64,000 nucleotides of DNA from Escherichia coli (GTDB lineage: Bacteria; Pseudomonadota; Gammaproteobacteria; Enterobacterales; Enterobacteriaceae): assembly GCF_022846255.1 (NCBI RefSeq), contig NZ_AP025682.1. One strand, written 5' to 3'. The position numbers were made by a program, and so were the translations under genes. Positions 5,995 to 9,076 of the stretch are shown here, one piece after another; positions within the stretch are counted from its first letter, which is position 1, and each line of letters opens with the position of its first letter. The notes beneath the pieces were generated by a model, which was not told the DNA's origin, searched no databases, and saw only the letters and a program-made list of their open reading frames with translations.

Positions 5995-6945
5995 ATGCGT
6001 GTGTTACTGGCTCCGATGGAGGGTGTACTTGACTCTCTGGTGCGGGAATTACTGACCGAAGTTAACGACTACGATCTGTGCATCACCGAGTTTGTCCGCG
6101 TGGTGGATCAACTGCTGCCAGTAAAAGTCTTTCATCGCATTTGCCCTGAGCTACAAAATGCCAGCCGGACACCATCCGGTACGCTGGTGCGCGTGCAGTT
6201 GTTAGGGCAGTTCCCACAGTGGCTGGCAGAGAATGCCGCCCGTGCGGTGGAGTTAGGTTCCTGGGGCGTGGATCTTAACTGCGGCTGCCCGTCGAAAACG
6301 GTTAACGGTAGCGGTGGTGGGGCAACGTTACTGAAAGATCCTGAACTCATCTACCAGGGTGCAAAAGCGATGCGCGAAGCTGTACCGGCGCATTTGCCTG
6401 TCAGCGTAAAAGTGCGTCTGGGCTGGGACAGCGGTGAGAAGAAATTTGAAATCGCCGATGCGGTGAAACAGGCTGGCGCTACGGAGCTGGTAGTACATGG
6501 GCGGACAAAAGAGCAGGGTTACCGCGCGGAACATATTGACTGGCAGGCGATTGGCGAGATTCGCCAGCGGCTTAATATTCCGGTGATTGCCAACGGTGAA
6601 ATCTGGGACAGGCAGAGTGCGCAACAATGCATGGCGATCAGCGGCTGCGACGCAGTGATGATTGGTCGCGGGGCGCTCAATATTCCCAACCTGAGCCGGG
6701 TAGTAAAATATAACGAACCGCGAATGCCGTGGCCGGAGGTGGTTGCTTTGCTGCAAAAATATACCCGTCTGGAAAAGCAGGGCGATACCGGGTTATATCA
6801 CGTTGCGCGGATTAAACAGTGGTTGAGTTATTTGCGTAAAGAATACGATGAAGCAACGGAATTATTTCAGCATGTTCGGGTGTTGAATAATTCCCCTGAT
6901 ATTGCAAGGGCTATTCAGGCAATTGATATCGATAAGCTGCGATAA
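5995..6945 (+). CDS. dusC: tRNA-dihydrouridine synthase C
   Basis: ORF track 5929..6945; start placed at [10 protein letters not shown] (5995); Dus-family TIM-barrel motifs (DLNCGCP) visible. Confidence 0.9.
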
Positions 6946-7332
6946 TAGTGGAATCGCAGTTTATCAGAGACAATGAATCGCTTATTCAGCTTCATCATCT
7001 TGTTGCGCTCCTTTCATGAGCTAAGCCACATATTGCCACTGGCGCAAGGAGCGCGCAGGGGGAGGACAATCGCCTCCTCCCCCTGCACCCCCGGGCTCTG
7101 GCGAACAAAATCGCCGCTGCGCGGTACCTTCAGCTTATCCCCTTCGTCTACCGGGTCGGGCGCGAGGTAACGTCCTTGTAAGACGCGCCCTCAGCCCACA
7201 TCCATGTGGGCTGCCCCGGCCTTCGGGGAACGCTTCAGCGATTTTGACGCCACCAACACCGGAGCTGTTTGCAAATCAAGTACACAAAATATCTAGTTCC
7301 TGACCTGACAACTTATATGCCATATCTGATTT

Positions 7333-7416
7333 TTAAAATATCATCTTAAATACGCCAGTCACCACCAGTAGCCCAATCAGGAAAATAATCAATACAGCCC
7401 AGAGTATAATTTTCAT
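7333..7416 (-). CDS. yohP: Small membrane protein YohP (27 aa)
   Basis: Reverse complement of 7333..7416 translates MKIILWAVLIIFLIGLLVVTGVFKMIF*, a single TM helix recalled as the K-12 small protein YohP; below the ORF-track size cutoff. Confidence 0.7.
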   Translation of the reverse strand: MKIILWAVLIIFLIGLLVVTGVFKMIF

Positions 7417-7639
7417 TGGCGTTCCTTTATTTGTGAGTGCTGAATAAGTATAGGAAAAAACGAAGCCCTTTGCCGTTATCCATAAACGATTAAGATAAAT
7501 CGGAAGATATCATTCACTTAGTGTATATTTTTCTGGATATGTCGTTTTATTGCTACTGATGTATTGCCACGCGAAACTAAAAAATATATCGCAACACACG
7601 GTAATCTCCGCGCACCTTTTCTTACCTGATTATTCCCCC

Positions 7640-9076
7640 ATGAATCGTGATTCCTTTTATCCCGCCATCGCCTGTTTTCCGCTGTTACTGATGCTGGCCG
7701 GGTGTGCGCCTATGCATGAAACCCGCCAGGCGTTAAGCCAGCAAACGCCCGCTGCACAAGTTGACACCGCATTACCCACGGCGCTGAAAAATGGTTGGCC
7801 AGACAGCCAATGGTGGCTGGAGTATCACGATAATCAACTCACTTCCTTAATTAACAATGCACTACAGAACGCACCGGATATGCAGGTGGCTGAACAGCGC
7901 ATTCAGCTAGCTGAAGCCCAGGCGAAGGCAATTGCTACTCAGGATGGTCCGCAGATCGACTTTTCTGCGGATATGGAGCGGCAAAAAATGTCGGCAGAAG
8001 GCTTAATGGGGCCGTTTGCTCTGAACGATCCGGCCGCAGGTACGACCGGTCCGTGGTACACCAACGGAACTTTTGGCTTAACGGCGGGCTGGCATCTCGA
8101 TATCTGGGGAAAGAATCGGGCGGAGGTTACTGCCCGCCTGGGTACGGTTAAAGCACGGGCGGCGGAACGCGAGCAAACCCGCCAATTGCTGGCTGGCAGC
8201 GTAGCCCGCCTGTACTGGGAGTGGCAAACCCAGGCGGCGTTAAACACGGTCTTGCAGCAAATAGAAAAAGAGCAGAACACCATTATCGCGACCGATCGCC
8301 AGCTATATCAGAACGGGATTACTTCTTCAGTTGAAGGTGTGGAAACCGATATTAATGCCAGCAAAACCCGGCAGCAGCTCAACGATGTCGCGGGGAAAAT
8401 GAAAATTATTGAGGCACGGTTAAGCGCACTTACAAATAACCAGACAAAGTCATTGAAGCTTAAACCGGTCGCGTTGCCGAAAGTGGCAAGCCAGCTTCCT
8501 GATGAACTGGGGTACTCCTTACTGGCCCGGCGGGCAGATTTGCAGGCGGCGCACTGGTACGTTGAGTCATCGCTAAGCACCATTGATGCGGCAAAAGCGG
8601 CATTTTATCCTGACATCAACCTGATGGCCTTCCTGCAACAGGATGCGTTGCACTTAAGCGATCTGTTCCGTCATTCCGCGCAGCAAATGGGCGTTACGGC
8701 AGGCCTGACGCTACCCATTTTCGATAGTGGTCGTCTTAACGCCAATCTCGATATCGCAAAAGCCGAAAGCAACTTGTCTATCGCCAGCTACAACAAAGCG
8801 GTGGTTGAAGCGGTGAATGACGTGGCGCGGGCAGCCAGTCAGGTTCAGACACTTGCGGAGAAAAACCAGCATCAGGCGCAAATTGAGCGCGATGCCTTGC
8901 GTGTGGTAGGTCTTGCGCAGGCGCGCTTTAACGCGGGCATCATTGCTGGTTCCCGCGTCAGCGAAGCCAGAATCCCGGCGCTGCGTGAGCGGGCCAATGG
9001 CCTGTTATTGCAAGGGCAGTGGCTGGATGCTTCCATTCAACTCACTGGTGCGTTGGGCGGGGGTTACAAACGCTGA
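7640..9076 (+). CDS. mdtQ: Outer-membrane efflux lipoprotein MdtQ (OprM/TolC family), apparently intact (478 aa)
   Basis: ORF track 7550..9076; start placed at MNRDSFYPAIACFPLLLMLAGC (7640), a lipobox; single uninterrupted frame. Confidence 0.85.
   Translation: MNRDSFYPAIACFPLLLMLAGCAPMHETRQALSQQTPAAQVDTALPTALKNGWPDSQWWLEYHDNQLTSLINNALQNAPDMQVAEQRIQLAEAQAKAIATQDGPQIDFSADMERQKMSAEGLMGPFALNDPAAGTTGPWYTNGTFGLTAGWHLDIWGKNRAEVTARLGTVKARAAEREQTRQLLAGSVARLYWEWQTQAALNTVLQQIEKEQNTIIATDRQLYQNGITSSVEGVETDINASKTRQQLNDVAGKMKIIEARLSALTNNQTKSLKLKPVALPKVASQLPDELGYSLLARRADLQAAHWYVESSLSTIDAAKAAFYPDINLMAFLQQDALHLSDLFRHSAQQMGVTAGLTLPIFDSGRLNANLDIAKAESNLSIASYNKAVVEAVNDVARAASQVQTLAEKNQHQAQIERDALRVVGLAQARFNAGIIAGSRVSEARIPALRERANGLLLQGQWLDASIQLTGALGGGYKR

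Follow-up and report, generated by a model that had tools for sequence, protein, structure and literature searches.

The stretch analysed here, referred to as the window, is 64,000 nucleotides (64 kb) of an Escherichia coli chromosome (RefSeq assembly GCF_022846255.1, contig NZ_AP025682.1); positions without a record number are window positions, and numbers of the type L003 designate records of other loci. A cluster of GC-rich hairpins occupies the 387 bp that separate the convergent genes dusC and yohP. This cluster is TRIP1c, a member of the TRIP1 intergenic repeat family, and it lies in the orientation opposite to that of strain K-12. The genes and segments of the locus are the following.

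5995-6945, plus strand: dusC (yohI), the upstream convergent gene, named after its RefSeq annotation in strain E2865, where this stretch is identical.
6939-7330, no strand assigned: allelic segment that differs between the orientation alleles; homology to the K-12 flanks ends at 6938 and resumes at 7331.
6991-7294, minus strand as the proposed RNA sense: TRIP1c repeat, the stretch common to other TRIP1 copies (the megablast places correspond to positions 46-349 of the query 6946-7332).
7333-7416, minus strand: yohP, the other convergent gene, for a membrane protein of 27 amino acids; read-through from it would yield the proposed RNA-sense strand.
7640-9076, plus strand: mdtQ (yohG), the next gene beyond yohP.

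TRIP1 was described by Rudd in 1999 (Res Microbiol), and Li et al. (2024, Genes 15:236; PMC10888264) have since surveyed 6,725 genomes for it. The survey gives a prevalence of 96% with 0-5 copies per genome, introduces TRIP1d and TRIP1e as additional types, proposes from prediction that the RNA takes a "double-Y" fold and places the TRIP1c of K-12 at 2229122-2229394. We identify the window copy as TRIP1c because the copies that we recovered sit exactly at the TRIP1a, b and c loci of that work. In K-12 they were found at aqpZ-lysO (TRIP1a), dusC-yohP (TRIP1c) and putP-efeU (TRIP1b, a shorter form), and the window copy lies, as TRIP1c does, between yohI/dusC and yohG/mdtQ. The K-12 TRIP1c (L003 5107-5377) was 89% identical to window positions 6985-7256 over 272 bp, with the flanks inverted; identity with the K-12 TRIP1a was about 91% over 304 bp, and TRIP1b was matched by the left and right parts of the window element.

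A megablast search with the spacer (6946-7332) against 5,426 complete E. coli genomes placed it 17,478 times, in all of them but one (5,425); the median genome held 3 places and none held more than 8. The element is in consequence neither single-copy nor ordinary intergenic DNA, and it has the low-copy, dispersed and nearly universal distribution of TRIP1. Within the window it is solitary: neither blastn nor nhmmer detected a second copy, and the only nhmmer match was 7261-7083 on the minus strand (E 5.6e-48). A preliminary description of the cluster had proposed an unclassified repeat family, a structured RNA or a degraded end of a mobile element. The first option was right as to the repeat and wrong as to its novelty, the family being already classified as TRIP1. 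In locus, length class (about 270 bp), GC richness and "double-Y" fold the window copy shows no essential difference from TRIP1a-e, and both orientations have been reported at the TRIP1a and TRIP1c loci (for TRIP1c, 2,952 forward and 2,789 reverse; PMC10888264). As a genome feature it is ordinary, a known and catalogued repeat with a known orientation polymorphism. The published work on TRIP1 is limited to E. coli and assigns no function; homologues in other genera, covariation, and the likenesses to the TwoAYGGAY RNA motif and to CsrA-type loops treated below are not part of it.

All four palindromes of the preliminary description are in the sequence at roughly the places given. The first (GCAGGGGGAGGA / TCCTCCCCCTGC, 7055-7066 / 7075-7086) has a perfect stem of 12 bp where 11 had been counted, and the third (CAGCCCACAT / ATGTGGGCTG, 7192-7201 / 7204-7213) one of 10 bp in place of 9. 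The second, GGGCGCG / CGCGCCC (7158-7164 / 7184-7190), has the 7 bp described. The fourth, CCCCG / CGGGG within 7214-7228, exists in the window copy with 5 bp only and competes with a conserved closing stem (7151-7155 / 7215-7219); it is not kept in the family alignment and was rejected as a conserved structure. Two features had escaped the description, namely a 9-bp hairpin (GCGCTCCTT / AAGGAGCGC, 7005-7013 / 7046-7054) and a long-range stem (7106-7121 / 7231-7246) that encloses the hairpins of palindromes 2-4. The statement that the palindromes are not repetitive extragenic palindromic (REP) sequences was correct: the REP-derived Rfam model naRNA4 matches REPs elsewhere in the K-12 region and does not match this element.

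For the element of 316 nt the minimum free energy is -148.7 kcal/mol (z -5.1) when the minus strand is folded and -129.0 (z -4.7) for the plus strand; none of 100 shuffled sequences folded as well. An Rfam scan at gathering thresholds assigned no family to the element; the 12-bp hairpin gave sub-threshold microRNA and snoRNA matches, which were set aside as noise from a GC-rich stem. The best Rfam match in the window was TwoAYGGAY (RF01731; Weinberg et al. 2010, PMC2864571), at 7108-7247 on the minus strand with 27.7 bits and an E value of 0.088. Read along the minus strand, the element is composed of the following parts.

7100-7251, minus strand: TwoAYGGAY-like domain, called the core, delimited by the RF01731 match, the RNAalifold consensus and covariation.
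7100-7103/7248-7251 and 7107-7114/7238-7245, minus strand: outer stem of this domain in the RNAalifold consensus, enclosing a three-way junction.
7231-7240 (RNA CGCUGAAGCG) with 7128-7134 (RNA GCUGAAG, the 3' arm), minus strand: tandem-G.A helix, helices 3 and 4 of the consensus.
7114-7124, minus strand: small side hairpin CCGC-TGC-GCGG in the 3' strand of the outer stem (helix 13, columns 183-186/191-194).
7151-7155 / 7215-7219, minus strand: closing stem of the three-way junction, CCGGG with CCCGG (helix 8), nearly invariant.
7192-7213, minus strand: hairpin 1, with loop ACAUGGAUGU at 7207-7198 and a covarying stem.
7158-7190, minus strand: hairpin 2, with loop region UUACAAGGACGU (ACAAGGACGT at 7179-7170), a conserved GGA and a covarying stem; a GA linker separates it from hairpin 1.
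7055-7086, no strand assigned: GC-rich hairpin with a perfect 12-bp stem and an 8-nt loop, located 3' of the domain on the minus strand.
7005-7054, no strand assigned: hairpin GCGCTCCTT...AAGGAGCGC, with a 9-bp stem and a loop region of 32 nt, the last feature 3' on the minus strand.
7089-7106 and 7214-7231, no strand assigned: direct repeat CCCCGGGCTCTGGCGAAC and its partner CCCCGGCCTTCGGGGAAC, 125 bp apart, bracketing exactly the stretch that TRIP1b lacks.

The family extends across the Enterobacteriaceae, which goes beyond the published E. coli work. By distant blastn, copies 80-84% identical were found in Klebsiella records, with up to 13 places in one K. pneumoniae record. In 100,044 species genomes, a pattern of hairpin 1, which itself required the GGA of that hairpin, matched at least 120 loci; about 100 of those listed are true copies and about 12 look random (rough expectation 8). 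The true copies among the matches listed came from Escherichia, Klebsiella, Enterobacter, Leclercia, Silvania, Pseudescherichia, Pseudocitrobacter, Raoultella, Atlantibacter and others, and at least 11 copies belonged to E. asburiae.

The core was aligned for 101 copies from more than 10 genera, and the RNAalifold consensus was taken from the 86 enterobacterial rows. Pair counts refer to this core consensus, the alignment of the full 316-nt element being unreliable outside it. Over the 101 copies, 91.7% of the cells of the 51 consensus pairs were standard pairs, against 80.0% in shuffled alignments and 37-43% when the partners were slid; 32 of the 51 pairs had compensatory changes on both sides, and none of 500 shuffles matched any of the observed pairing measures. 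The changes are spread over the whole fold. In hairpin 1 the stem covaries at columns 71/86, 72/85 and 74/83, in hairpin 2 the inner stem passes from A-U to G-C in 27 sequences, and in the small side hairpin double changes from C-G to U-A were seen in 17. The tandem-G.A helix, of the form CYGARGC / GCYGARG, covaries on both sides of its G.A pairs: columns 32/177 hold C-G in 47 copies and U-A in 38, columns 35/173 hold G-C in 52 and A-U in 41, and all four combinations of the two bordering pairs occur. Outside the core, the 12-bp hairpin carries compensatory changes as well (GAGGA/TCCTC to GCGGC/GCCGC in K-12, a basal G-C to A-T in Klebsiella), and the 7005-7054 hairpin has its counterparts in Klebsiella (GCGCTCCC / GGGAGCGC) and Enterobacter (CGTTCAC / GTGAACG). 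The GGA of hairpin 2, never demanded by the search pattern, is kept in about 97% of the 101 copies, and 19 further copies obtained by nhmmer, free of any pattern and including a divergent subfamily, keep GGA in both loops. The option of a structured RNA thus held as far as a conserved secondary structure is concerned, which covariation strongly supports.

The minus strand is suggested as the RNA sense by four observations taken together. In the consensus pairs G.U was counted 72 times and A.C 30 times, 12 of the latter at a loop-closing position; the RNAalifold energy was -116.3 for the minus and -103.9 for the plus strand; the single-sequence folding energies given above differ in the same direction; and all TwoAYGGAY matches are on that strand.

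On most other copies no known bacterial RNA family except TwoAYGGAY was matched, and its matches always fell on that strand. The gathering threshold of the model is 43 bits. K-12 copies scored 30.6-30.9 bits, copies of other genera 26.6-30.6, and a divergent enterobacterial subfamily reached the highest values, 32.7-37.8. TRIP1 and TwoAYGGAY share the order closing stem, hairpin 1, short purine linker, longer hairpin 2 with an internal loop, and closing stem; both have terminal loops of the form A-Y/R-GGA-Y, a long outer P1 stem and a tandem-G.A helix; and both are multi-copy genomic repeats, TwoAYGGAY being known from gamma-proteobacteria and Clostridia. In the window the long P1 stem is represented by 7100-7114 / 7238-7251, accompanied by the CYGARGC / GCYGARG helix. 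A long P1 stem resembling terminal inverted repeats is noted for TwoAYGGAY in the supplement of Weinberg et al. (PMC2864571), and tandem GAs are noted for it in PMC4333381. The loop of hairpin 1, AUGGAU, fits AYGGAY, while that of hairpin 2, AAGGAC (AGGGAU in K-12), has R for Y at position 2; in Enterobacter copies the loops are AUGGAU and AUGGAC. The variants AGGGAC and AGGGAU, like those of TRIP1, occur in the TwoAYGGAY alignment of Weinberg et al. itself (PMC2864571). TRIP1 differs in having two extra GC hairpins on the 3' side and in scoring below 43 bits throughout, and the published gamma-proteobacterial members are AT-rich Psychromonas sequences, unlike the GC-rich TRIP1. On this comparison we describe the TRIP1 core as TwoAYGGAY-like and do not call it a member.

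The same two loops resemble binding sites of the RNA-binding protein CsrA. The string ACANGGAYGT has only two matches in the window, which are the loops of hairpins 1 and 2, located 28 nt apart on the minus strand. A spacing of 28 nt suits dual-site binding by a CsrA dimer. The loops ACAUGGAUGU and UUACAAGGACGU read ACA-N-GGA-YGU, the CsrA core obtained by systematic evolution of ligands by exponential enrichment (SELEX), in two hairpins that covary, and a K-12 copy, with loop UUACAGGGAUGU, agrees with the SELEX consensus at 11 of 12 positions. In that consensus, RUACARGGAUGU, the ACA and the GGA do not vary, and the GGA is located in the loop of a hairpin (PMC4347634); both loops of the window copy have GGA in the hairpin loop together with the invariant ACA and GGA. 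Binding of CsrA was proposed for TwoAYGGAY on the same grounds (PMC4333381). By comparison with CsrB, CsrC, McaS and RsmY/Z, TRIP1 likewise has GGA in short hairpin loops matching ACA-R-GGA-UGU and two sites spaced for one dimer. Unlike CsrB it has two or three sites, here predicted, instead of about 20, and it is not a dedicated small RNA (sRNA) gene driven by a promoter. Rfam places TwoAYGGAY in clan CL00106, which we take to be the clan of the Csr/Rsm sRNAs. We would rather expect CsrA to bind both loops in vitro; that such docking matters in the cell is improbable. A new lead, open to testing, is the connection of TRIP1 with TwoAYGGAY together with the CsrA-type loops.

The genomic context was classifiable for 65 enterobacterial copies, of which 38 were in convergent spacers, 12 in tandem-sense, 13 in tandem-antisense and 2 in divergent position. 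The family settles at the 3' ends of genes and avoids promoters, with no preference of orientation. In a convergent spacer the sense strand would be transcribed from one side in either orientation. At the locus under study no terminator-like site was found in 6850-7560, for dusC or for yohP, in agreement with the lack of T-tracts remarked in the preliminary description; the single promoter-like match in the same interval is within chance expectation and points elsewhere than to the element. We found no literature pairing yohP with Term-seq, and the supplement text of an eLife 2021 study has no entry for these genes. The likeness to REPs and the composite BIMEs is in the GC-rich extragenic palindromes, the location at gene 3' ends and the action in either orientation, REPs being known to stabilise upstream mRNA. 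TRIP1 departs from them in having no sequence similarity, in being longer, more complex and low-copy, and in lacking a GTAG motif of the RAYT type.

The orientation alleles are not simple flips. Their cores differ by 8-11%, the spacers outside the core are non-homologous between the two TRIP1c alleles, and the aqpZ terminator is present in only one of the two orientation alleles at that locus; a simple inversion was rejected on the core difference and the unrelated spacers. The window TRIP1c differs from the K-12 TRIP1c at 27 of 254 positions and from the reversed TRIP1a allele at 15, and the copies group by orientation class and not by locus (6991-7294 compared with L003 5107-5377, L005 2001-2274 and L001 2501-2803). 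The genome of the window is of the type with forward TRIP1a and reversed TRIP1c. The left boundary of the allelic segment (6939) falls inside the last codons of dusC, whose product ends in IDIDKLR* in this strain and in IDIEKL* in K-12.

The ends of the segments 6939-7330 and 6991-7294 have no terminal inverted repeats or flanking direct repeats, and the only feature of the window element resembling an inverted repeat is the internal outer stem. For the enterobacterial family we found neither a target duplication nor an empty site, and no transposase that could be its partner. At aqpZ-lysO in particular, a spread sample of 40 of 5,424 genomes contained no empty site; the spans were 787, 776, 749, 706 and 613 bp, and the short alleles have lost the core through internal deletions between short direct repeats. 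TRIP1b itself is a 125-bp internal deletion (PMC10888264), and its junction is visible in L006. Independent core-deletion alleles were seen at L132 290-625, L133 290-720 and L006 2880-3060. Short direct repeats bound each deletion: CCGGGG..CCGGGG, TCGG(G)CG..TCGGCG and, for TRIP1b, the 18-nt repeat whose two copies are 125 bp apart. As to the third option of the preliminary description, the element is not the end of any known mobile element and behaves in E. coli as a fixed, decaying resident.

Taking into account these data, the explanation that we favour is that TRIP1 is an old structured repeat similar to miniature inverted-repeat transposable elements (MITEs), now immobile in E. coli and kept for the fold of one strand, which would act as a stable RNA 3' structure and as a docking site for CsrA. 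We rate the chances of this explanation as about even. The family would be selected for a specific fold on the minus strand of the window, formed in the 5' to 3' direction by the outer stem, the tandem-G.A helix and the side hairpin around the three-way junction, the two hairpins with C-A-N-G-G-A-Y-G loops and the two GC-rich hairpins. Since neither dusC nor yohP has an intrinsic terminator, both are probably read through; read-through from yohP would produce the sense RNA as a 3' untranslated region of yohP, and that from dusC the complement. The most likely present-day effect would be REP-like, a very stable RNA 3' structure blocking 3' exonucleases and insulating the convergent dusC and yohP transcripts from each other. 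A CsrA dimer would, in addition, find a bipartite docking site in the two GGA loops. What speaks for selection on a fold is its maintenance by compensatory changes across many enterobacterial genera, while both loops carry the invariant CsrA core.

Several observations weigh against this explanation. We found no published transcript, 3'-end or binding data for the element. In the CsrA tables of Potts et al. 2017, which combine cross-linking and immunoprecipitation (CLIP) with expression at gene level, dusC and ybjE are marked "No", not significant; these tables are centred on genes, and intergenic reads and reads of multi-mapping repeats may have been dropped from them. No copy that was scored had a TwoAYGGAY match at the gathering threshold. 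In tandem contexts the orientation is random (12 sense, 13 antisense), which implies that many copies are not transcribed in the sense direction, and the 1-5 copies of E. coli are too few for a sponge effect like that of CsrB. Moreover, the frequent deletion of the core in E. coli (TRIP1b, L132, L133) argues against strong selection at each locus.

The alternative that survives best takes TRIP1 for a fossil MITE, purely selfish and of no function to the host. Its stems and its GGA/TCC loops would have been needed by the mobilising enzyme, as single-stranded DNA hairpins or in an RNA intermediate, and the copies of E. coli would be dead relics tolerating the 3' ends of genes. This would explain the wide variation of copy number (1-8 places in E. 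coli, up to the 13 of the K. pneumoniae record and at least 11 in E. asburiae), the avoidance of promoter regions with no orientation bias, the decay of E. coli copies by deletion between short direct repeats, and the long outer stem, which resembles terminal inverted repeats. Moreover, elements of Firmicutes with the same core architecture are MITEs of about 276 bp. Nine copies of this repeat were seen in metagenome-assembled genomes of Syntrophomonadaceae / Syntrophothermus (L088-L095, L072), with the core layout of TRIP1 in a true MITE: 20-bp terminal inverted repeats (TAGTTGCCCCTGAAAAACTC) flanked by TA, a core of two hairpins with GGA loops, and AAGGGG / CCCCUU at the position of the TRIP1 closing stem. 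No autonomous partner was present in the surrounding DNA examined. With nhmmer profiles free of the search pattern, the similarity to TRIP1 had E values above 1, with four matches at the expected position; the similarity not being significant, we claim only an architectural likeness. Like MITEs, among them ERIC/IRU and the Firmicutes repeat, the enterobacterial copies are small, non-coding, structured and intergenic, with a copy number varying among genomes; unlike them they lack terminal inverted repeats, target-site duplications and, in the E. coli genomes sampled, insertion polymorphism. The absence of an empty site, of a partner transposase and of a phage carrier (a search of 50,697 phage records gave no similar DNA) also speaks against a selfish origin of this kind. 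Both orientations occur at two E. coli loci, and the lack of a fixed orientation relative to replication argues against a mechanism like that of IS200/IS605 or RAYT elements on the lagging-strand template. Finally, the identity of the loops with the CsrA consensus would have to be a coincidence. On balance we consider this alternative rather unlikely.

It could also be proposed that binding of CsrA is the primary role of TRIP1, as a portable sponge or cis-regulator. A read-through mRNA (of yohP here, of dusC in K-12) would gain a bipartite site, and the copies would collectively titrate CsrA. In line with this, both loops are ACA-N-GGA-YGU in hairpins and keep GGA while their stems covary, the same proposal exists for TwoAYGGAY (PMC4333381), and the preference for convergent spacers would guarantee sense transcription from one side. 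The flanking genes give no CLIP signal, however, the copies in E. coli are few, TRIP1b and other alleles have lost the core, orientation in tandem contexts is random, and TwoAYGGAY itself has no experimental support in the literature. We regard a primary CsrA module as improbable. The more specific proposition that the TRIP1 core is a divergent, GC-rich enterobacterial branch of TwoAYGGAY, carried on a MITE-like repeat as a portable bipartite site for one CsrA dimer and controlling read-through transcripts or titrating CsrA, has by our estimate a similarly low probability. If it were true, the orientation polymorphism would switch which neighbour is affected, yohP in the window and dusC in K-12. 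The analysis ties together TRIP1 and TwoAYGGAY, two elements for which no function is known, and the hypothesis is cheaply testable in E. coli K-12, with the two orientation alleles and several core-deletion alleles as natural controls. Confirmed binding of CsrA would give a first function to TwoAYGGAY-type RNAs and would provide a case in which the binding sites of a global regulator are spread by a dispersed repeat.

A role at the level of DNA, as a cruciform, a recombinogenic sequence or a site for a nucleoid protein with no RNA function, appears quite improbable to us. The perfect GC-rich palindromes would suit it, orientation is immaterial, and 156 chromosomal rearrangements between TRIP1 copies, including an inversion of 1.3 Mb, have been documented (PMC10888264). 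Such rearrangements follow from any dispersed repeat, however, and are not evidence of function; the excess of G.U over A.C and the strand asymmetry of 12-20 kcal/mol are unexpected for cruciforms of double-stranded DNA, and the loop sequence is conserved on one strand.

Opposite orientations with respect to conserved flanks at dusC-yohP and aqpZ-lysO, each present at TRIP1c in about half of the E. coli genomes (PMC10888264), could suggest an invertible switch for phase variation; the alleles are only 89-92% identical, with the core difference and non-homologous spacers described above, their boundaries lack inverted repeats, the neighbourhood contains no recombinase gene, and such a switch is very improbable. 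Least credible of all is a hidden small protein or type I toxin-antitoxin gene on the minus strand (7013-6996), where a strong Shine-Dalgarno-like AAAGGAG stands 8 nt before AUGAUG and is paired with GCGCUCCUU in the 7005-7054 hairpin: the reading frame leaves the repeat into the 3' end of dusC (7013-6915, minus strand) and has 27 codons for amino acids here against 9 and 3 in the K-12 copies, Enterobacter has GTGAACG for AAGGAGCGC and with it no Shine-Dalgarno-like sequence, and the substitutions are compensatory in stems and not codon-periodic. A leader of the Shine-Dalgarno/anti-Shine-Dalgarno type or a small open reading frame was rejected, neither the frame nor the arm being conserved.

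Some further variation of the family was observed. A copy of the divergent subfamily stands head-to-head with a canonical copy, 36-144 bp apart, at four loci from three genomes, those of Leclercia sp. 29361 (twice), Enterobacter quasihormaechei and an Enterobacteriaceae isolate. The pairs lie at L054 2016-2387, L096 1541-2023, L120 6901-7310 and L122 12699-13075. In one copy (L076 47-234) hairpin 1 is duplicated in tandem. In a recurrent variant (L018, L037, L078, L130) the 3' half after GAGGACAAAA is replaced, and in L018, L078 and L130 the replacement bears another hairpin with a GGA loop (CCCCAAGGAUGGGG). Contigs labelled Desulfacinum, Sporobacter, "Proteobacteria" and Bacillus (L021, L023, L071, L124) have hairpin-1 matches identical to those of the Klebsiella, Enterobacter or Escherichia type, which probably represent enterobacterial contamination of the assemblies. 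Most of the plasmid matches inspected carry chromosomal genes, which suggests mislabelled chromosomal sequence.

Around the locus, mdtQ (7640-9076) is intact in the window, whereas K-12 MG1655 has a pseudogene; in the identical strain E2865 the gene is annotated as encoding the multidrug resistance outer membrane protein MdtQ. The K-12 region has naRNA4 matches of REP type at L003 2389-2466 and 8730-8767 and a Peptidase-S11 RNA (RF03039, 72.8 bits) in the pbpG leader at L003 876-956, all unrelated to TRIP1c. A 13-bp hairpin (GATAAGCTGCGAT / ATCGCAGTTTATC) straddles the stop codon of dusC (6931-6965), and its first arm holds GATAAGCTG, which equals the conserved GAUAAGCUG of the repeat (7139-7131, minus strand).

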